A model generated the notes under the pieces. That model worked only from the letters and a program-made list of their open reading frames with translations. It searched no databases and had not been told where the DNA came from. Source: Oscillospiraceae bacterium (GTDB lineage: Bacteria; Bacillota; Clostridia; Oscillospirales; CAG-272). Taken from it: a DNA stretch of 64,000 nucleotides. Position 1 is the stretch's first letter. Each line of letters starts with the position of its first letter. The stretch lies in NCBI GenBank assembly GCA_015063845.1, contig SVTJ01000007.1:21968-85967 (forward strand). The letters are read 5' to 3'. Positions 8,396-64,000 of the stretch are shown one piece after another. The translations under genes were made by a program, and so were the position numbers.

Positions 8396-8422
8396 AATCT
8401 AATTTTTGAAAGGAATAAACAA

Positions 8423-9840: not shown

Positions 9841-10005
9841 TCAAATTAGGATTTATCGGGGACGCGTTTTTTTGAGGGGAACTTCTTGAAAGAAGTTCCC
9901 CTCAAACTCCCTTCAAGAACTTTAAAACTAAATTATTATTGGTGTAGCCGTAAGAAAAGATATAACTTTATTGTTTTTCTTATAAGGAAAAAACTCGTCG
10001 GACCT
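9841..10005 (+). repeat. copy A of the palindromic intergenic repeat family (X-type half element)
   Basis: Starts GTCAAATTAGGATTTATCGG, carries the conserved hairpin GAGGGGAACTTCTT-GAAA-GAAGTTCCCCTC, and ends AAAACTCGTCGGACC. Confidence 0.8.
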
Positions 10006-12838: not shown

Positions 12839-12913
12839 AAAAGGATAGAGGAATAAATTTATTTTTATTATTCATACGCCATATTCATCAACAAGGAATA
12901 TTATGCTTGAAGG

Positions 12914-12954
12914 TAAATTAGGATTTGTCGATGGACTCGCATAAATCTAATTTT
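12914..12954. repeat. cargo-less mini copy of the repeat-family termini (two inverted AAATTAG(G)ATTTRTCG arms back to back), each arm containing TGTCGA
   Basis: AAATTAGGATTTGTCGATGGACTCGCATAAATCTAATTT, about 90-130 bp upstream of the spoIIG -35. Confidence 0.6.
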
Positions 12955-13007
12955 CTCTTTATTGCTTGCGGGAGAAAGATGTGGCGGAGCCACCACCTCA
13001 TTATCAT

Positions 13008-13053
13008 TATCAATATCAATATTATTCTCATTATTATTATCATTATCATTATA
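13008..13053. repeat. AT-rich ATT/ATC microsatellite-like low-complexity tract
   Basis: cattatcattatcaatatcaatattattctcattattattatcattatcattat. Confidence 0.7.
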
Positions 13054-13064
13054 GGGTTTTTTCG

Positions 13065-13108
13065 CTTTTTTTGGCAACCGATAGCTTTTTTTGGCAACCG
13101 ATCGGTTT
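13065..13108. repeat. tandem direct repeat 2 x TTTTTTTGGCAACCGAT ending in the 12-bp palindrome AACCGATCGGTT
   Basis: ctttttttggcaaccgat agctttttttggcaaccgatcggtt. Confidence 0.7.
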
Positions 13109-13111
13109 TCA

Positions 13112-13146
13112 CAAAAAAACACAGCTGCGTTTTTACAGCTGTGTTC
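13112..13146 (-). terminator. intrinsic terminator of the PfkB-family kinase gene
   Basis: AACACAGCTG-CGTTTTTA-CAGCTGTGTT followed by a T-run on the minus strand. Confidence 0.7.
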
Positions 13147-13160
13147 TTTGATCATATTCA

Positions 13161-14090
13161 TTATATTTGCGATACGTTTATGAGCTCACCAAGCCTTTGT
13201 ATATCCTCTTTTCTCGGTGGCTTTGTGCCCTCTGTAAGACACGCCGCGCTTCCATAGGCAACGGCTGTGCGAAGCAAATCGCAATTTGCCGCCCCCTCAC
13301 TCATCGCCGCAAGAAAACCCGCTATCGAGCTATCCCCCGCGCCGATGGTGGAAAGTGCCTTTATTTTAGGCGCTTGCGCAAAGTATGCTCCGTCAGACGC
13401 GCAAAGCACCGCTCCGCGCGAGCCGAGGCTGATCATTACGTTTTCTATCCCCTGCTCTCTCAGAGCACGAGCCGCTTTCACAGCGTCCTCAAGCGTATCT
13501 ATCCTCTCATCGACGTATGCCGCCACCTCGTCCTCATTAGGCTTTATCAAAAAAGGTCCTATCAAGAACACGTCCTCTTTCGTAAGCGAACGGCTGTCTA
13601 TCACAAGCTTCGCGCCTTTTTCCTTCAGTTTCAAAAGAAAGCTGACAAGGGCATCTCTGCCGATACCGTCCGGGACACTTCCCGTAAAGGCAAGCACGCA
13701 GTCATTATCTATCATTTTAGAAATAAGCTCATAGACCTCGTCAAGAAGTCCGTCGCTCGCAGCCGCCCCCGCAAAGCTTATGCGTGTTTCCACACCGCTT
13801 TTTGTATGCACGGTGATATTCTCACGCACCCTTCCCTTGACCTCTACCGTCAAAGCATTTATACCGTCAGAGCTAAGAGCATCTTCAAAATCCGCTCTTC
13901 CTTCGCTTCCCACAACGGCGACCGCCGTATTCGGAACGCCCATGGCGCAGAGAGCGCGGGAGACGTTTATTCCCTTTCCGCCCGCATCGCGGGAGAGTAT
14001 GCTCACGATATTCTCGTGACCTGCGACAAAGCTATCCGTATAGCAATGCACGTCTTGCGCCACGTTAAGTGTCAATGTGATTATCTTCAT
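13161..14090 (-). CDS. 1-phosphofructokinase / tagatose-6-phosphate kinase family (PfkB) sugar kinase
   Basis: GGKGINVSRA motif near the N-terminus, a C-terminal GAGDS anion hole, and 309 aa. Confidence 0.85.
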   Translation of the reverse strand: MKIITLTLNVAQDVHCYTDSFVAGHENIVSILSRDAGGKGINVSRALCAMGVPNTAVAVVGSEGRADFEDALSSDGINALTVEVKGRVRENITVHTKSGVETRISFAGAAASDGLLDEVYELISKMIDNDCVLAFTGSVPDGIGRDALVSFLLKLKEKGAKLVIDSRSLTKEDVFLIGPFLIKPNEDEVAAYVDERIDTLEDAVKAARALREQGIENVMISLGSRGAVLCASDGAYFAQAPKIKALSTIGAGDSSIAGFLAAMSEGAANCDLLRTAVAYGSAACLTEGTKPPRKEDIQRLGELINVSQI

Positions 14091-30227: not shown

Positions 30228-30400
30228 GCAAAAACCGAAGGCGGAGGGGCTCTGGAGAATCTCCCAAAGTAGGAGTGCCGAAGGTGCAAAGCGAAGCTTT
30301 ATGCTTCGTCCAATCTCTCAGGCAAAAGGACAGAGCAGACAATAAAGGTCTGTATTGTTTCTCTTCACGAGCCACTGAAGGTTTTCAGTGGTTTTTTTAT
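30228..30400 (+). promoter_or_regulatory. glycine riboswitch (single aptamer) with terminator expression platform
   Basis: GGAGGGGCUCUGGAGAAUCUCCC...GCCGAAGGUGCAAAG...CUCAGGCAAAAGGACAGAG matches the glycine aptamer consensus. It is followed by CCACTGAAGG-TTTTCAGTGG plus a T-run, and lies upstream of the AGCS symporter. A TGgTATAAT promoter sits at 30174-30182. Confidence 0.75.
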
Positions 30401-30428: not shown

Positions 30429-31841
30429 ATGGACGCTATTCAAAATTTTCTTCTTGGTATAGTCTCAAAGATCAATATGTATCTTTCTGACTATATCCTC
30501 ATTTTCCTTCTTGTCGGCGTAGGTCTTTTCTACACCATCAGAACAAGATTCGTTCAGATCCGTTGCTTTGGCGAGGGAATGAAGCAGGTTTTCGGCGGTA
30601 TTTTCTCAAAGAAAAACGGCGCTAAGGGTGGACTTTCATCCTTCCAGGCACTCGCTACCGCAGTTGCGGCTCAGGTAGGTACGGGTAACATCGTCGGTGC
30701 TTGTGGAGCGATCCTTATAGGTGGTCCCGGTGCTATATTCTGGATGTGGGTCATCGCATTCTTCGGTATGGCTACCATCTATGCCGAGGCAACTCTTGCT
30801 CAGAACACCAAGGTCGTCGGCGAAAACGGTGCGGTTCTCGGAGGTCCCGTTTACTACATCAAGAAAGCATTCAAAGGCACATTCGGCAAGATCCTCGCAG
30901 CCTTCTTTGCAATCGCAACAATTCTTGCTCTCGGATTTATGGGAACGATGGTTCAGTCCAACTCCATAGCAGGTGCTATCAACAATGCTGTTCCCGCTAT
31001 TCCTACGTTCGCAGTAGGTATAGTTCTCGCAATTATCTGCGGATTTATTTTCATTGGCGGCATAAAGCGCATTGCCTCGGTTGCTGAAAAGGTAGTTCCC
31101 GCAATGGCTGTTATCTACATTATTCTCGCCATCATTGTTCTCGGTGTTAACATCAAGGCAGTTCCCGCAACATTTGGCATGATCTTCAAATATGCATTTG
31201 TGCCTCATGCTGTACTCGGCGGCGGTATAGGCTTTGCTCTTAAGACAGCTATCAGCCAGGGTGCGAAGAGAGGTTTGTTCTCCAACGAAGCAGGTATGGG
31301 TTCAACACCTCACGCTCACGCACAGGCAGAGGTTGAAATTCCTCACCAGCAGGGTGTCGCAGCTATGATCGGTGTATTTGTAGATACATTTATAGTTCTT
31401 ACAATGACAGCCCTCGTTGTTATCACAACTCTTTACAAGGACGGAGTTCCCGTCGTTGACGTCACAAAGAACAACATGATGCAGGTCGCTATGGGTACCG
31501 TATTCGGCACAACAGCAGGCTCTCTGCTCGTTGCTATCTGCCTTATGTTCTTCGCTTTCACAACAATTATCAGCTGGAACTTCTTCGGTAAGCAGAACGT
31601 TGAGTATATGTTCGGCAAGAAAAACGCGAAGGCTGCAACAATAATTTACTCAGTAATCGCAATCGCATTCATTTTCCTCGGAACAGTATTCCAGTCCGAC
31701 CTCGTTTGGGAGCTCACAGACTTCTTCAACTATCTCATGGTACTCCCCAACGCACTCGCACTCTTCGTGCTTTCTCGAATCGTTGTCGATGCAACAAAAG
31801 AAGGCAAGGCACGCAAAAAGGCAAACAAAAACAACAAATAA
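30429..31841 (+). CDS. alanine/glycine:cation symporter (AGCS family)
   Basis: 470 aa, 11-12 TM helices, and a characteristic AGCS N-terminus (YILIFLLVGVGLFYTIRTRFVQIR). Confidence 0.85.
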   Translation: MDAIQNFLLGIVSKINMYLSDYILIFLLVGVGLFYTIRTRFVQIRCFGEGMKQVFGGIFSKKNGAKGGLSSFQALATAVAAQVGTGNIVGACGAILIGGPGAIFWMWVIAFFGMATIYAEATLAQNTKVVGENGAVLGGPVYYIKKAFKGTFGKILAAFFAIATILALGFMGTMVQSNSIAGAINNAVPAIPTFAVGIVLAIICGFIFIGGIKRIASVAEKVVPAMAVIYIILAIIVLGVNIKAVPATFGMIFKYAFVPHAVLGGGIGFALKTAISQGAKRGLFSNEAGMGSTPHAHAQAEVEIPHQQGVAAMIGVFVDTFIVLTMTALVVITTLYKDGVPVVDVTKNNMMQVAMGTVFGTTAGSLLVAICLMFFAFTTIISWNFFGKQNVEYMFGKKNAKAATIIYSVIAIAFIFLGTVFQSDLVWELTDFFNYLMVLPNALALFVLSRIVVDATKEGKARKKANKNNK

Positions 31842-37458: not shown

Positions 37459-37521
37459 GCACCGACGCTGCCATCGCAGCTCGCTTCGCATAAGTGCCAT
37501 CCCAGCCAGCACAAAAGGCAC
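37459..37521 (+). repeat. 63-bp direct repeat, copy 1 (contains CCATCCCAGCCA, the tRNA-Gln 3'-end sequence)
   Basis: Identical except for one mismatch to 37939-38001. Confidence 0.85.
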
Positions 37522-37938
37522 CCCAAGAGGTGTCTTACATAAAGCAGGTTTTAATCTCCCTGCGAGATCCGAACGGCGTTGCCGTTCGCCCTTCGGGTTT
37601 CGACTGCGTCCGCCCGTGTCATTCTGAGCGAAGCGGAGCGGAGTCGAACTGCGAAGCAGCACCGAGCAAAGCGAAGGTAGAATCTCGGGCGGACTCCGCT
37701 CAAGATGACACGCAGGGGGCAGCACCTTCCGAAAAAATAACAAAAGGAGTACGAGCAATTTTGTTCGTACTCCTTTTGTGTTTGCGGTAGGTAAAACCTG
37801 CTTTATCGCAGGTACGCCAATGCGTGCCTTTTGTATTGGAGCTTTTTTCGCCGGGTATTCAAATTTGCTTTGCAAATTTGAAGATTTCCTCGCCCTGCGC
37901 CTGGTGAGCGAGCTACCCGATCTTCGGGCGGGAAATGT

Positions 37939-38001
37939 GCACCGACGCTGCTATCGCAGCTCGCTTCGCATAAGTGCCATCCCAGCCAGCACAAAAGGCA
38001 C
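37939..38001 (+). repeat. 63-bp direct repeat, copy 2, abutting tRNA-Gln and forming a 26-bp-stem perfect hairpin with the tRNA 3' end
   Basis: CCATCCCAGCCAGCACAAAAGGCACG-CCAATG-CGTGCCTTTTGTGCTGGCTGGGATGG. Confidence 0.85.
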
Positions 38002-38022
38002 GCCAATGCGTGCCTTTTGTGC

Positions 38023-38097
38023 TGGCTGGGATGGCCGGATTTGAACCGACGGATGCCAGAGTCAAAGTCTGGTGCCTTACCGCTTGGCGACATCCCA
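38023..38097 (-). tRNA. tRNA-Gln (anticodon UUG)
   Basis: 75-nt cloverleaf with U1-A72, anticodon loop CUUUGAC, T-loop GGTTCAAATCC, and an encoded CCA. Confidence 0.85.
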
Positions 38098-38180: not shown

Positions 38181-38506
38181 GTCAAATTAGGATTTGTCGG
38201 TGTGTTCGCACAGGCTTGCCGACGCTTGCGAGTGTTCCTCACTCTAAGAACTTTAACACAAAGAAATTATTATTTTTTTAATTGGGCTGAAAAACTCATT
38301 GTAGTGCAGAACGTTCAAATACCCATAAAACTCGTCGGTACGTAGGGTCCGACGAGTTTTTACCTCAGAGAAAAACAATAAAGTTATATATTTCCTATGG
38401 CTGTAACAATAACTATTTTGTTTTAAAGTTCTTGAAGGGAGTTTGAGGGAAGCTTCTTTCAAGAAGTTTCCCTCAAAAAAACGCGTCCCCGATAAATCCT
38501 AATTTA
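38181..38506. repeat. copy B of the palindromic intergenic repeat family (full element: Y arm, central bidirectional terminator hairpin, inverted X arm)
   Basis: Termini GTCAAATTAGGATTTGTCGG ... CCGATAAATCCTAATTTA, centre AAAACTCGTCGG-TACGTAGGGT-CCGACGAGTTTTT (38327-38361). Confidence 0.85.
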
Positions 38507-38525: not shown

Positions 38526-38830
38526 TTGACAAATATTTCTTTGTGTGATATAATACTTAATTGTAATAAACAAATGCTTTGACGAAGACAGTAGCGTAGA
38601 TGAGCGTTTTCAGAGAATCGGGGTATGGTGTGAGCCCGATATTCGCCGCTATGTGAATATCACTTCCGAGCTGCGTGGACGAAGCCGTTTTTTGGTGTGT
38701 AGTCTCCGACGGGACCGAGCCGTTATTTTCGGGACGTATGATGTACGTTTTAATGGGTGGTTTGTGAGCTTTCGTCCTATTAGCGGCGGAGCTTTTTTTA
38801 TTTTTAAATATAAACTCTAAAAGGAGAATT
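38526..38830 (+). promoter_or_regulatory. consensus sigma-A promoter plus a T-box-like leader of ileS
   Basis: TTGACA-17-TATAAT (38526-38554), and a roughly 270-nt structured leader with AGAGA and GGGTGG (T-box-like) elements. The canonical T-box and terminator are not cleanly resolved. Confidence 0.45.
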
Positions 38831-41938: not shown

Positions 41939-41950
41939 GAATACGTTTTT

Positions 41951-41988
41951 TAGGGGAACTTCTTCCAAGAAGTTCCCCTAAATTTTTG
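41951..41988 (+). terminator. intrinsic terminator of ileS, using the same hairpin sequence found inside the repeat family
   Basis: TAGGGGAACTTCTT-CC-AAGAAGTTCCCCTA followed by AATTTTTG. Confidence 0.8.
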
Positions 41989-41996
41989 TTTGTGAG

Positions 41997-42326
41997 GTAA
42001 ATTAGGATTTATCGGGGACGCGTTTTTTTGAGGGACGCGTTTTTTTTGAGGGAAACTTCTTGAAAGAAGTTTCCCTCAAACTCCCTTCAAGAACTTTAAA
42101 ACAAAATAGTTATTGTTACAGCCATAGGAAATATATAACTTTATTGTTTTTCTCTGAGGTAAAAACTCGTCGGACCCTACGTACCGACGAGTTTTATGGG
42201 TATTTGAACGTTCTGCACTACAATGAGTTTTTCAGCCCAATTAAAAAAACAATAATTTCTTTGTGTTAAAGTTCTTAGAGGGGAATACTCGCAAGCCTGT
42301 GCGAACTCCCCGATAAATCCTAATTT
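41997..42326. repeat. copy C of the palindromic repeat family (full element, inverted relative to copy B; internal 17-bp tandem duplication GACGCGTTTTTTTGAGG)
   Basis: Termini GGTAAATTAGGATTTATCGGGG ... CCCCGATAAATCCTAATTTA, central hairpin at 42162-42195. Confidence 0.85.
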
Positions 42327-48192: not shown

Positions 48193-51100
48193 TTAGTTTG
48201 TCGTACCTACGTTTTTGAGCGTGGGATGCGTGCCTTCGGCAAAGCTCCAATCATCGGCGGACCAAGTGAGAGTTGTGGTCTGGAACGTTACCGATTGCAA
48301 TTCGGTCAAGGATTTAGTCGTTCCATACGTGTTGGTAGGCTCGTAGGTTGTCTTTTCGCTTTTCGTCACGGTAAAGCTTTGTCCGCTGTAGCGATAGCAA
48401 TTGGTTATTGTTCCCTTGTAATTATCACCGACCAAGCCGCCTGCGTAGCTGTATTTGCTGGAGCTGGAGCTTACATCACCCGTTGCATAGCAATTACTTA
48501 TTGTACCGCCGTCATTATCACCAACCAAGCCGCCTGCGTAACTGTATCCGGAGTTAGAGTTGGTGATAGAGCTTGTTGCGTCACCTATTGCATAGCAGTT
48601 GGTTATTGTACCGCTATTACAACCAACCAAGCCGCCTGCGTAACTATCGCTGTAGCTAGAGCTGGAGCTTATATCACCCGTGGCATAGCAGTTATTTATT
48701 ATTCCATCATCGTCATTATAGCCGACCAAGCCGCCTGCGTAGCTGTATTTGCTGGAGTTGGAGCTGGAGCTGGTTACATCTCCCGTGGCATAGCAGTTGG
48801 TTATTGTACCGCCATTACCACCAACCAAGCCACCTGCTTTGCTACTGGAGCTGGAGCTGGAGCTGGTTACATCTCCCGTTGCATAGCAGTTGGTTATTCT
48901 ACCGCTACCATTATAACCAACCAAGCCGCCTGCGTAGCTGGGGTCGTAGCTTGAGCTGGAGCTTACGTCACCCATTGCATAGCAGTTGGTTATTCTACCG
49001 CTACCATTATAACCAACCAAGCCGCCTGCTCTGCTACGGCAGGAGGAGCTATCGACGCAAATGGAGATTACCTCTCCCGTTGCATAGCAATTATTTATGT
49101 TACCGTAATTACAACCAACCAAGCCGCCTGCGTAACTATCTCCGTCGTTGGAGACGGAGCTTACGTCTCCCGTTGCATAGCAGTTATTTATTATTCCATC
49201 ATCGTCATTAAAGCCGACCAAGCCGCCTGTGTAACTGAGGGAGATGTGTTTGGGGCTGGAACTGGAGCTTACGTCACCCGTTGCATAGCAATTACTTATT
49301 GTACCGCCGTAATTCCAACCAACCAAGCCGCCTGTGTGTCTGCTGGAGGTTTCTCCGGAGCTGGAGCTGGTTACATCTCCCGTGGCATAGCAATTACTTA
49401 TTGTACCGCCGTAATTATAACCAACCAAGCCACCTGCGTAACTATGGTCAGGGCATACGTCTATTGTAAAATTCTCTACGCCAAGATTCTTTATAGTACC
49501 CTCGTTATATCCAAACAAGCCCGCAGCATATGCTACCGAATCCGTTATCTTGAAATTAGATATGGCATATCCGTTTCCGTCAAAAACGCCCTTAAAAGGT
49601 AAGTCTTTTGTACCTATAGGCGTCCACTCTATGCCGCCAAGATCCAAATTCGTCACCAAACAGTATTTGACATTTTCAGCATTTGTAGAGATTGATCTTA
49701 GTTGCTGTACCGTATAGATCGGTATATATCCCGATATGTACGTACCGTAATACAATTGGATGCTTTCGGGCAATTGTATAATACCAATTCCATTCGTTTT
49801 TGAATACACCGTTCCGTTTTTATCAGTCCATACACTCTCAAAGCCATCTTCTACCGTAGGCATCGGCAGCGTATAGTTACTTGCATTATCTACAAACAAT
49901 ATCTGCCACAGCTCACCGTCCACGTAAAGCTCAACGAAAGGCTTTTCGGAAAGAAGAACACCGAAAGCGTATTGTTTTACTACGGTATTATCGGCGACAT
50001 CTGTCGCCGTAACGGTAACTACCACCGTAGTTCCGGCAATCATCTCTCCTGAGCACATCACATCAAAGCTCAATTCCTTGCCAAAGTAGTCATACGCCCT
50101 AAATAGTGTAGAAAGGTCGGTATCCTCGTGAATAATGCGGTTACTCTGCACAAGCTCTACGGTAGGCATACCGTAAAACGTATATACAGCATTAATCGTA
50201 ATATCCTCGTGTCCGAGCGTATAGCTTTCCCACTTGCCCGTATATCCCGCATGTGTGGGAACGGCAGGCTCGGTGATGGACTGTGTTTCTACCGTGAATT
50301 TAACAGTATCGACAACGGTAGTACCGTCCATAAAGGTTGCCGTATATTCAACAGCCTCCCACTTTGCGTAAAGGTGAACGATATCCGTAGTGCCGACTGC
50401 GATCTCGGTTACTATGTTGTTAAATCCGGCATCGCTGTACCAGCCCTTGAAGCTATAGTAATTCTTACTTGCGTTAGTAAGAACGAGGGGCAGATCCTCT
50501 ACGTCGTAATTTGCGGGGTTGTTATGCGTTGCTCCCTCGACGTTGTGATATACGATATTATAATTGATCGGGGTATATATAGCATTAATCGTAATATCCT
50601 CGTGTCCGAGCGTATAGCTTTCCCACTTGCCCGTATATCCCACATGTGTGGGAACGGCAGGCTCGGTGATGGACTGTGTTTCTACCGTGAATTTAACAGT
50701 ATCGACAACGGTAGTACCGTCCATAAAGGTTGCCGTATATTCAACAGGCTCCCACTTTGCGTAAAGGTGAACGATATCCGTAGTGCCGACTGCGATCTCG
50801 GTTACTATGTTGTTAAATCCGGCATCGCTGTACCAGCCCTTGAAGATATAGTAATTCTTACTTGCGTTAGTAAGAACGAGGGGCAGATCCTCTGCGTCGT
50901 AATTTGCGGGGTTGTTATGCGTTGCTCCCTCGACGTTGTGGTATATAATATTATAATCAACCGTATCCCATTTTGCGGTCAACGTAAGATTGCCCGTACT
51001 GCCCTTGGATATTTGGGAAACGGGAGTATTGCCAACGTACCATCCGCTAAAGGTATAGCCATCCTTAGACAAGGGCGCAAATGTGATCGTATCGCTGTTG

Positions 51101-51705
51101 ATGGTATATGTAGCAGGATTTGTGTTTACAGCACCCTTTGTGTTCTCGTAGGTAATGCTGTACGTTGCCAATTCAAACTTGGCGTAAAGCGTCATATCTC
51201 CGGTAGTACCCGCAGCTATGGCTGTTATCTGTGTTGTAAATGCCGCGTCCGTGTACCATCCCAAGAAGTTATAACATGCCTTCTGCGCGTCGGCAAACGC
51301 AAAGCCTATATCCGCCGTATATTTCAAGGGGTTGTTATGCGTACCGCCGTCCGTTTCGTAAGATATGGAATATTCGGTCGCCTTGAATCTTGCATATACG
51401 GACATATTGCTCGAGATAGGAGTATCAAGCAAGGAGCTGACCGTAAACGGATTGCTCCACACATCCTTATCCCAATACCAGCCCTCAAAGGTATAGCCCT
51501 CCTTTTTCGGGTCATCGGGTAGGGTCGGTGTTTCGCCTTCGATCATTTCGATAGTAGAGTACGTTTGTCCGTCCACTATAAAAGACAGCGTGAAATTGCT
51601 GTCGGACGGAACGTCGGGTTTGCTGCCCGAGTCGCCCTTACCGCAGGATGCAAGAATGGCAACCAGCATAGCAAGCGTCAGAAATAAAGCGATAAGCCTT
51701 TTCAT
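48193..51705 (-). CDS. large cell-surface lipoprotein with Listeria-Bacteroides (InlB B-repeat/Flg_new) repeats and about 12 C-terminal GLUG-motif repeats
   Basis: Lipobox ILASCG, several EGYTFxGWY..xxxTxDxTLYAKW repeats, and a C-terminal array of YAGGLVG(Y/C)N..GTI(T/S)NCYATGDV units. Confidence 0.8.
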   Translation of the reverse strand: MKRLIALFLTLAMLVAILASCGKGDSGSKPDVPSDSNFTLSFIVDGQTYSTIEMIEGETPTLPDDPKKEGYTFEGWYWDKDVWSNPFTVSSLLDTPISSNMSVYARFKATEYSISYETDGGTHNNPLKYTADIGFAFADAQKACYNFLGWYTDAAFTTQITAIAAGTTGDMTLYAKFELATYSITYENTKGAVNTNPATYTINSDTITFAPLSKDGYTFSGWYVGNTPVSQISKGSTGNLTLTAKWDTVDYNIIYHNVEGATHNNPANYDAEDLPLVLTNASKNYYIFKGWYSDAGFNNIVTEIAVGTTDIVHLYAKWEPVEYTATFMDGTTVVDTVKFTVETQSITEPAVPTHVGYTGKWESYTLGHEDITINAIYTPINYNIVYHNVEGATHNNPANYDVEDLPLVLTNASKNYYSFKGWYSDAGFNNIVTEIAVGTTDIVHLYAKWEAVEYTATFMDGTTVVDTVKFTVETQSITEPAVPTHAGYTGKWESYTLGHEDITINAVYTFYGMPTVELVQSNRIIHEDTDLSTLFRAYDYFGKELSFDVMCSGEMIAGTTVVVTVTATDVADNTVVKQYAFGVLLSEKPFVELYVDGELWQILFVDNASNYTLPMPTVEDGFESVWTDKNGTVYSKTNGIGIIQLPESIQLYYGTYISGYIPIYTVQQLRSISTNAENVKYCLVTNLDLGGIEWTPIGTKDLPFKGVFDGNGYAISNFKITDSVAYAAGLFGYNEGTIKNLGVENFTIDVCPDHSYAGGLVGYNYGGTISNCYATGDVTSSSSGETSSRHTGGLVGWNYGGTISNCYATGDVSSSSSPKHISLSYTGGLVGFNDDDGIINNCYATGDVSSVSNDGDSYAGGLVGCNYGNINNCYATGEVISICVDSSSCRSRAGGLVGYNGSGRITNCYAMGDVSSSSSYDPSYAGGLVGYNGSGRITNCYATGDVTSSSSSSSSKAGGLVGGNGGTITNCYATGDVTSSSSNSSKYSYAGGLVGYNDDDGIINNCYATGDISSSSSYSDSYAGGLVGCNSGTITNCYAIGDATSSITNSNSGYSYAGGLVGDNDGGTISNCYATGDVSSSSSKYSYAGGLVGDNYKGTITNCYRYSGQSFTVTKSEKTTYEPTNTYGTTKSLTELQSVTFQTTTLTWSADDWSFAEGTHPTLKNVGTTN
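50181..50960. repeat. near-identical 2 x 393-bp tandem duplication inside the surface-protein gene (131-aa protein repeat)
   Basis: Unit 1 (50188-50580) and unit 2 (50581-about 50960) differ by only a few substitutions. Confidence 0.85.
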
Positions 51706-56390: not shown

Positions 56391-56405
56391 AGATAAGGAT
56401 GCGCG

Positions 56406-56819
56406 AGGGGAAAACTTCTTGGAAGAAGTTTTCCCCACTCCTGTTGCGTTTAACGGTTCTGTCTGCGCTCGCGTAGCGAGCTTGACAATCACCGAACGCC
56501 GCCACGCCTTATCGCTCGCTTTGTCTGCCACAGGCAGCGCTCGCAAACGTCCCCCCTTTCAAGAACTTTAAAACAAATTGTTTGTTGGTGTAGCCATAAA
56601 AAACATATAACTTTTTGTTTTTCTTTAATGTAAAAACACGTCGATAATCTATTGCCCGACGTGTTTTATGGGTATTTGCGCTTTGTGCGCTGTAACAAGT
56701 TTTTTAGCCCAACTAAAAAAGTAATAAATTATTTGTGTTAAAGTTCTTTCGGGAGTTTGAGGGAGCTTTCTTTCAAGAAAGCTCCCTCAAAAAACGCGTC
56801 CCATATAAATTCTAATTTG
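56406..56819. repeat. copy D of the palindromic repeat family (mosaic, with a roughly 120-bp divergent insertion)
   Basis: Begins with the hairpin GAGGGGAAAACTTCTT-GG-AAGAAGTTTTCCCC, has the central hairpin AAAAACACGTCG...CGACGTGTTTT (56632-56667), and ends CCCATATAAATTCTAATTTGTC. Confidence 0.75.
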
Positions 56820-60912: not shown

Positions 60913-60996
60913 GACAAATTAGGATTTACCCGCGTGTTCGCACAGTACTCAGTTTTAAAGTTTTGATAAAACTTTTAAGAGGGGGAATGTGCGAAC
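60913..60996. repeat. copy E of the repeat family (short: one terminus plus the GTGTTCGCACAG...CTGTGCGAACA hairpin)
   Basis: GACAAATTAGGATTTACCCGCGTGTTCGCACAG...AATGTGCGAACAT. Confidence 0.65.
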
Positions 60997-63788: not shown

Positions 63789-64000
63789 GTCAAATTAGGA
63801 TTTGTCGGTGGGTTCGCACAGGCTTGCCGACGCTTGCGAGTGTCCCCCCTCTAAGAACTTTAACACAAAGAAATTTTAATTGGGCTGAAAAACTCATTGT
63901 AGTGCAGAACGTTCAAATACCCATAAAACTCGTCGGTACGTAGGGTCCGACGAGTTTTTACCTCAGAGAAAAACAATAAAGTTATATATTTCCTATGGCT
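63789..64000. repeat. copy F of the palindromic repeat family (nearly identical to copy B; truncated by the window end)
   Basis: GTCAAATTAGGATTTGTCGGTGGGTTCGCACAGGCTTGCCGACGCTTGCGAG, the central hairpin AAAACTCGTCGGTACGTAGGGTCCGACGAGTTTTT, and the start of the inverted X arm. Confidence 0.85.

Follow-up and report, generated by a model that had tools for sequence, protein, structure and literature searches.

Introduction

The Correia repeat carries a TA duplication at its very start. REP sequences are hairpins of 20–40 nt that are not known to have a separate long terminal inverted repeat, and bcr1 of the Bacillus cereus group is a MITE-like repeat of about 155 bp, whose apparent terminus is lengthened by a constant flanking direct repeat, the pentanucleotide TTTAT.

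In bacterial type II MITEs, only the termini are shared between subfamilies (PMC10969869). Among the repeats of Streptococcus pneumoniae, SPRITE is terminator-like and enriched at the 3' ends of genes, without a matching IS or a detectable target duplication (PMC3049150), while BOX is modular and variable in length, and repeats of this pneumococcal set occur in clusters, with insertions of one into another (PMC3049150, Croucher et al. 2011). A survey of bacteria has grouped 1.4 million candidate MITEs into more than 110,000 clusters, most of them genus-specific (PMC11602168); with clusters so numerous and so narrowly distributed, a new family at the level of a genus is to be expected rather than surprising.

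Here we analyse such repeats in a window of 64,000 nucleotides, which is the whole stretch of DNA under study, from the genome of an Oscillospiraceae bacterium. An earlier note, made from the letters of this DNA, had proposed a candidate MITE-like palindromic repeat with at least seven copies. The data presented below lead us to a new superfamily of non-autonomous MITE-type inverted-repeat elements as the probable explanation, in which modular hairpin cargo lies between termini that would be recognised by an enzyme encoded elsewhere.

Results

Copies of the element in the window

The repeat is multi-copy: all seven loci were confirmed where they had been reported in the 64 kb, at a density far above chance. 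The 17-mer AAATTAGGATTTRTCGG at the terminus has 10 matches in the window with up to three mismatches, six of them exact, compared with a mean of 0.35 and a maximum of 2 in 100 shuffles. The exact ends lie at 9843, 38184, 41999 and 63792 on the plus strand and at 38505 and 42326 on the minus strand. Degenerate ends are located at 12915 and 60916 (plus strand) and at 56818 (minus strand), and a match with three mismatches at 8405 (minus strand) is doubtful. A sensitive blastn search of the window with copies B and G recovered the seven loci and a lone Y-type hairpin (41946–41982), and nothing else. The elements occupy about 2.5% of the window.

Copies B and C are complete (about 325 bp), and both are bounded by inverted termini, as had been claimed for full copies. 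Copy B (38184–38505, plus strand, 322 bp) is composed of an X arm, a centre and a Y arm, placed between a left terminal inverted repeat, AAATTAGGATTTGTCGGTGTGTT (38184–38206, plus strand), and a right one (38483–38505, minus strand), both of which match the terminus in the logo of 57 ends described below. Copy C (41999–42326, minus strand, 328 bp) is the reverse complement of B; the two are 99% reverse-complementary over 240 nt, and C has a 17-nt internal tandem duplication. Copy G (63792–64000, plus strand), which is cut by the end of the window, is 100% identical to B over 127 nt, and the suspicion that some copies are near-identical and young is thereby borne out. In a longer assembly of the same strain the full copy G measures 419 bp, with an X arm, a centre and a Y arm with an insert (L113 3758–4176, also L207).

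The half copy, the mosaic copy with an insert and the 40-bp copy are also as described in the earlier note. Half element A (9843–10004, minus strand) retains an exact terminus, a Y arm and the left half of the central hairpin; its Y arm forms a perfect GAGGGGAACTTCTT/AAGAAGTTCCCCTC hairpin and is 90% identical to the right arm of B. The 40-bp mini copy (12915–12954) consists of two degenerate termini back to back, with almost no cargo. Copy E (56405–56818, minus strand) is an old mosaic with a degenerate terminus at 56818, assembled from a Y hairpin without terminus, a GC-rich insert of about 110 nt that is common to copies E and G, a Y interior, a centre, an X interior and a Y-type terminal module. 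Copy F (60916–60996, plus strand) is short, decayed and of another arm type, GTGTTCGCAC..AAAGTTTTGATAAAACTTT..GTGCGAAC, which is intact at L204 19259–19708 and in the MAG JAZSNX (L075).

Recurrence in independent assemblies

The window contains spoIIGA and the spoIIIA operon, and its host is an uncultured, spore-forming member of the Clostridia from the ruminant gut, whose IleRS has its closest homologues at about 80% identity and the next at no more than 76%. The 40-odd contigs that carry genes of the window are all 100% identical to it, except two at 99.8–99.95%, so that only one clonal strain is represented. Seven of the 11 contigs carrying ileS are about 3.8 kb long and end inside copies B and C, and the JGI metagenome contig Ga0224413_10003177 (97.6 kb), whose first 64 kb form the window in reverse complement, ends inside copy G. 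Contig ends inside copies are what a collapsed multi-copy repeat leaves behind. With two 10-kb extensions from the same strain, elements at L204 19259–19708, L204 20602–20851 and L207 15793–16318 are added, which gives about 11 element loci in roughly 84 kb (the 64-kb window and the two extensions).

Two same-strain assemblies, L209 (13990–14162) and L211 (4223–4448), diverge right after a common 23-mer terminus, and past that terminus a B-type X arm is all that follows in the 97.6-kb contig. The far end of this contig is probably a chimeric join via the repeat and is not to be trusted. A contig that stops inside G on one side and looks joined through a shared terminus on the other (L209 13990 versus L211 4223) could raise the question of whether the repeats themselves arose as an artefact of assembly or chimerism in the metagenome contig. 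However, copies B, C, E, F and G recur without a base change in as many as 23 independent assemblies (JGI, ENA, Logan) and the family is also present in unrelated MAG projects, and we regard the probability of such an artefact as negligible. What the family does account for is the fragmentation of short-read assemblies and MAGs of this ruminant-gut lineage about every 8 kb, with chimeric joins being possible.

Position relative to genes

The claim that all copies are intergenic and lie at operon ends holds for part of them. Copies C and G follow gene terminators, each starting a few bases past the U-tract of the neighbouring gene's own terminator; C has the ileS terminator on one side and the feoAB operon promoter on the other, with the −35 hexamer of the latter 22 nt past C's end. 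Copy A lies between the terminators of a phosphoglucosamine-mutase-like gene and a UDP-GlcNAc 2-epimerase gene. Copy B, in contrast, sits between divergent promoters, those of tRNA-Gln (minus strand) and of the T-box/ileS unit (plus strand), with its right end 20 nt upstream of the ileS −35 hexamer, and copy E and the mini copy overlap coding sequence. The TAG stop of a DUF4234 gene (56812–56814) falls within the degenerate terminus of E (AAATTAG, 56812–56818), and the last 18 or so codons of an 86-codon Asn/Asp-rich ORF (12901–13161, minus strand) cross the 40-bp copy. The elements encode no protein, as had been stated: an ORF common to the copies is absent, and the ORFs overlapping copies lie opposite or across real genes.

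Complete copies B and C flank ileS, and we considered B-ileS-C as a composite transposon carrying this gene. This candidate was rejected: in relatives, too, tRNA genes diverge from T-box-ileS, and the type of IleRS is the one native to the lineage.

The T-box leader upstream of ileS (38570–38782) scores 78.9 bits (E = 1.5e-16), under the Rfam gathering score of 93, and was missed by the default Rfam scan. Near tRNA-Gln, there is a 78-nt direct repeat (37459–37536 and 37939–38016, 92% identical) and a perfect 28-nt palindrome (37976–38003 / 38008–38035), the right arm of which overlaps the 3' end of tRNA-Gln; these repeats (37459–38035) resemble scars left by integrative elements, of the att-like or duplicated tRNA-end kind. 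In relatives L201 and L203, tRNAs and genes for a serine recombinase or phage integrase immediately precede ileS. Elsewhere in the window, a gene on the minus strand (48193–51705) encodes a 1170-aa protein with Flg_new and Glug repeats in imperfect tandem units of about 93 nt, and includes a 300-nt duplication that is 99% identical (50180–50479 and 50573–50872). A glycine riboswitch (30242–30343) is found upstream of a Na+/alanine symporter gene (30429–31841).

A conserved 23-nt inverted terminus

In a logo built from 57 distinct ends, the inverted terminus is 23 nt long, AAATTAGGATTTRTCGGKGWGTT; its positions 1–23 are conserved and conservation drops sharply at −1. Inverted pairs of this consensus delimit at least 19 complete elements, which thus have the terminal inverted repeats, of at least 10–15 bp at both ends, that characterise MITEs. 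The 23-mer termini of the window are neither palindromes nor hairpins. Outside the terminus there is a weak signal at −3 to −1 only (K-T-Y; 0.27–0.45 bits per position), and composition is at background beyond −3. C is nearly absent at −3 or −2, the flank bias is mostly on one side of an element, and TTTGTG-N-KTY is found immediately outside the terminus in about 15 of 54 ends. A conserved stretch of about 55 nt upstream of some termini suggested that the 23-mer could be an internal part of a longer unit. This was discarded as a general rule, as the stretch belongs to one compound (Z) subfamily and the other 54 flanks are background.

Internal modules and their folding

In the window's subfamily, an arm is laid out as a terminal module followed by a common box, AAGAACTTTAAMAC. 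The X-type terminal module is GTGTTCGCACAGG..., and the Y-type module is GGACGCG-T7 followed by the GAGGGGAACTTCTT hairpin, an arm of which has 9 matches in the window versus 0.31 expected. The whole of copy B forms a long imperfect hairpin (DNA fold −60.3 kcal/mol, z = −8.8).

The central hairpin of B (38327–38363) has A4, a 9-bp stem, a 10-nt loop and T5, and the centre reads AAAA-ACTCGTCGG-loop-CCGACGAGT-TTTTT. Among copies, the stem differs by compensated changes (ACTCGTCGG versus ACACGTCGG). The centre folds with −20.4 and −18.8 kcal/mol on the two strands (z = −4.7 and −3.1, respectively), with U5 on one and U4 on the other; its loop exceeds the 8-nt limit of the scanner, hence its absence from the listing of the terminator scan. 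The central module is shaped like a bidirectional intrinsic terminator, and this fold predicts that it should stop transcription coming from either side.

The terminator function attributed to the elements in the earlier note is therefore credible for the central A-run/hairpin/T-run, which is terminator-shaped both ways, but not for the GAGGGG hairpin of the Y arm. This subterminal hairpin (38442–38477 in B, TTTGAGGGAAGCTTCTT..AAGAAGTTTCCCTCAAA) has a T-run 5' and an A-run 3' of the stem on both strands, and so is not a terminator in either direction. Its stem is kept by compensated changes: among 13 distinct copies, taken from several species and loci, 94.4% of cells are paired and 8 of the 18 pairs have changed on both sides, a level of covariation that was reached in 0 of 500 shuffles.

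Modules of the same kind are also found apart from the termini. The lone Y-type hairpin at 41946–41982 (plus strand), to which no terminus is attached, is the ileS terminator, located 16 nt ahead of copy C, and is the sole Y-type copy with TTTTTGTTTG after the stem; the same order of hairpin and then terminus occurs in L108 and L204. In JAZSNX01, a Y arm follows a gene without its outer terminus, and a relative (85%) that has no terminus in 9 kb has Z-type and Y-like hairpin modules at gene ends. The presence of modules without termini, including in this terminus-free relative, indicates that the internal modules are older or more widespread than the terminus.

The Z module itself consists of a hairpin, CCTACTTTTCTTTT..AAAAGAAAAGTAGG, and a tail, CAAAAGAAAACAACA..GGTTTGTGCKTY, and was observed at L207 15793–15880, L086 3620–3790, L095 7254–7400 and L216 3686–3750. 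In two species, a terminus comes directly after it. The compound order, again in two species, is a terminus, the Z hairpin, ...GGTTTGTGCKTY and a second terminus in the same orientation, with different elements downstream, so that the junction of ...GGTTTGTGCKTY with AAATTAGG recurs ahead of different elements. The Z module is either an insertion hot spot or a compound end.

Distribution beyond the window

A 19-mer scan across 185,579 species, each represented by one genome, returned 77 loci, about half of which are chance coding matches, chiefly to the MKLGFIGAGNMA N-terminus of ProC-like proteins. The 19-mer AAATTAGGATTTATCGGTG doubles as coding DNA for this N-terminus in pyrroline-5-carboxylate-reductase-like Rossmann proteins of many unrelated bacteria; family searches by motif alone consequently need the next bases as a filter. 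The true members belong to about ten genomes, all of them MAGs of uncultured animal-gut Clostridia, Eubacteriales or Oscillospiraceae, namely JAZSNX01 (20 contigs), JAZQUS01, JAZKZP01, RGIG9556, RGIG5332, RGIG6481, RGIG1849, RUG10975 and an Avispirillum MAG. One contig binned as Alphaproteobacteria resembles a member.

The family thus occurs in related genomes, where the earlier note had suggested looking for it. In MAGs JAZSNX01, JAZQUS01, RGIG9556 and RGIG6481, the terminus bounds 16 further complete elements of 77–654 bp, whose hairpin-rich interiors are unrelated, and single ends of the same kind are present in six further assemblies, often at contig ends. Unlike the window copies, the MAG subfamilies have REP-like interior modules with GTAGGGG hairpins. 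All elements measure 40–654 bp and share no ORF, in keeping with the size (below about 800 bp) and non-coding nature of MITEs. In a metagenome collection that excludes the source samples, a scan for the terminus gave 71 loci, nearly all of them chance coding matches, with true members only at L173, L184 and L198.

No match continuing into family-like sequence was found among 25 terminus matches in viral contigs, and blastn of copy B gave no match in plasmids and phages. In the Rfam scan the elements match no family, the best within them being a 25-bit hairpin against a threshold of 440 bits; the Rfam matches in the window are tRNAs, the glycine riboswitch and the T-box only. A full-text literature search with the 12-mer core returned unrelated primer matches only. 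The view that this is not a recognised named repeat is upheld by these searches of Rfam, plasmid and phage collections and full text.

Shared junctions with different cargo in three species

One of the JAZSNX01 elements lies beside the gene for a galactose-binding protein (MglB), whose orthologue on the 97.6-kb contig is 92% identical; a third metagenome has one at 89%. The gene order of the mglB region is conserved among the three organisms. Two junctions, one upstream of mglB and the other 5–6 nt past the U-tract of the mglC terminator, are occupied by an element in all three species at exactly the same place, and the cargo there is wholly different in each. Between the source and JAZSNX01, mglB DNA is 83.6% identical and orthologous intergenic flanks are 70–74% identical, while element interiors at the same junction reach 36.6% (unalignable) and arms at non-orthologous loci 86–93%. 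The same junctions with different cargo, together with similar arms elsewhere, indicate that the family has been active, exchanged or homogenised since the species split. Either the sites are fixed and their cargo has been replaced, or insertion is highly site-specific. Distant relatives keep tRNA genes divergent from T-box-ileS without an element there, and the terminus is also absent beside their mglB.

Occupation of the same two junctions in three species can be read, too, as the mark of fixed host features with exchangeable content. Taken to its end, this leads to a model in which the elements are not mobile at present and are old, host-maintained intergenic modules, serving as terminators, insulators or RNA-stability hairpins and combined with a protein-binding 23-mer, that were spread and homogenised by recombination and gene conversion. 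Such a model would account for the conserved occupied sites, for hairpins that are kept by compensated changes, with a terminator-like centre, for the location of copies just after terminators or just before promoters, and for the terminus-less Y- and Z-type hairpins that serve at gene ends. It is difficult to reconcile with copies B, C and G, which are 94–100% alike in unrelated flanks, and with the position of C and G downstream of genes that already have their own terminator. Furthermore, the Y hairpin terminates in neither direction, the decayed, truncated, nested and cargo-less copies of 40–81 bp are typical of selfish repeats, and the arms at non-orthologous loci are more alike between two species than coding DNA is. 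We consider present-day immobility unlikely, and retain mobile elements as the preferred explanation.

Target site, empty sites and the search for an enzyme

For an element mobilised in trans, the earlier note had pointed to a target-site duplication, to empty sites in related strains and to a transposase or recombinase flanked by the same termini. A target-site duplication, which in MITEs usually measures 2–10 bp, is not seen: there is no direct repeat outside the termini in any of the more than 19 complete elements, including the young copies B, C and G. It follows that either the first six bases of the terminus conceal a palindromic TA, AT or AATT duplication, at positions 2–6, or the enzyme makes no duplication. 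A transposase or recombinase with the same termini was found neither in the window nor in 24 MAG loci, nor in the viral, plasmid or phage collections. A Pfam scan of 30 window proteins detected no transposase, integrase or Y1_Tnp domain, and an all-versus-all blastp of the ORFs in 33 loci gave no ORF recurring beside termini. Of the candidate solo ends, those in L041 and L061 were rejected as lying inside ORFs, and that in L038 stands alone, as a single terminus ahead of guaA. When metagenome contigs were scanned for an empty site of copy B (its left flank, 0–14 nt and its right flank), there were 0 matches; the relatives at no more than 80% IleRS identity are without elements, with synteny or flanks too diverged to define a junction. 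In the data searched, the lack of a target duplication, of an empty site and of an enzyme gene counts against the main explanation.

Ends without an outer duplication could be rationalised by a mover other than a staggered-cut DDE transposase, for example a DEDD enzyme (IS110/IS1111-type), an HUH enzyme (IS91, RAYT/REP-type) or a tyrosine or serine recombinase, which would either insert into favoured sequences duplication-free or exchange, as a cassette, whatever lies between two inverted termini. Consistent with this are the one-sided K-T-Y bias with TTTGTG-N-KTY at about 15 of 54 ends, the recurrent Z junction with different elements downstream, the different cargo at the same junctions of three species and the REP-like GTAGGGG hairpins of the MAG subfamilies. 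On the other hand, the flank signal is weak at 0.27–0.45 bits per position, no gene of such an enzyme lies near any copy examined, and the 23-nt terminal inverted repeat sets the family apart from IS110, IS91, IS200/605 and REP elements, which are not known to have long perfect terminal inverted repeats. An enzyme of one of these classes is an unlikely, though not an extravagant, choice.

A related proposal concerns the termini themselves, which might mark a duplication-free, site-preferring exchange system, where a recombinase or an unusual transposase inserts or swaps hairpin cassettes at fixed intergenic junctions. Exchange at such junctions (after U-tracts, at TTTGTG-N-KTY) would explain why junctions are kept while cargo is replaced, and also why arms are 86–93% identical across species compared with 70–74% for orthologous intergenic DNA. 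We put this forward as a speculative and rather improbable variant.

Discussion

Proposed mode of propagation

Based on the above data, we favor the explanation by non-autonomous MITE-type elements, supported by near-identical young copies in unrelated flanks, by their excess over chance, by the broken assemblies and by the covarying hairpins. In the mechanism that we propose, the terminus AAATTAGGATTTRTCGGKGWGTT would be bound and cleaved by a putative transposase or recombinase whose gene lies elsewhere in the genome, and we infer that the elements are mobilised in trans. The segment between the termini would be built of exchangeable non-coding modules, namely GC-rich subterminal hairpins, the AAGAACTTTAAMAC box, optional inserts and the central A-run/hairpin/T-run. 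New copies would land in AT-rich DNA just past terminator U-tracts or just upstream of promoters. The effect on the host is likely to be mostly neutral, and a copy may occasionally serve as a terminator, as an insulator or as the donor of a stop codon.

The family adds a dense modular repeat superfamily to a class, the Clostridia, for which few such families have been described, and a small uncultured clade of this class can be recognised specifically by the 23-mer. It also offers a test case for inverted-repeat elements without target duplications and for the turnover of cargo at fixed sites. It opens no new category, as interspersed inverted-repeat elements are ubiquitous in bacteria.

Comparison with known repeat families

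The elements resemble bacterial MITEs (Correia/CREE of Neisseria, ERIC, RUP, Nezha, Chunjie and QMITE1/2) in being small (40–650 bp), non-coding, mostly intergenic and strongly folded. Terminal inverted repeats of 4–30 bp, the coexistence of full and truncated copies with relics devoid of terminal inverted repeats, and type II behaviour are further points in common (PMC10969869). They differ in having no flanking direct repeat even on young copies and no cognate IS in the data searched, and they are not AT-rich throughout, because the hairpin modules are GC-rich. A TA placed as in Correia would here fall at positions 5–6 of the terminus rather than at its very start.

A Firmicute precedent for a conserved target hidden in the terminus is provided by bcr1. 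Its sequence, size and host are different, and the new family allows only a palindromic hidden duplication. REP/BIME/REPIN elements, associated with RAYT (IS200-like Y1), are likewise palindromic, extragenic inverted pairs at operon ends without target duplication, and the GTAG-led GC-rich hairpins of REP/REPIN are matched in the MAG subfamilies. In contrast to the REP/REPIN and RAYT system, the window termini are not palindromes and no Y1_Tnp is encoded among the 30 window proteins.

SPRITE, BOX and RUP share with the new family their nature as Firmicute interspersed repeats, SPRITE being terminator-like and BOX modular. The "TIR" of SPRITE is only AAAA/TTTT, compared with a specific 23-mer in the new family, and the hosts are streptococci and Clostridia, respectively. 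No sequence relation to BOX, RUP or SPRITE is evident, this distinction being drawn from their descriptions and not from direct sequence comparison. While no sequence relationship to a named family was found, the closest known systems are bacterial MITEs in general and the pneumococcal SPRITE, BOX and RUP repeats.
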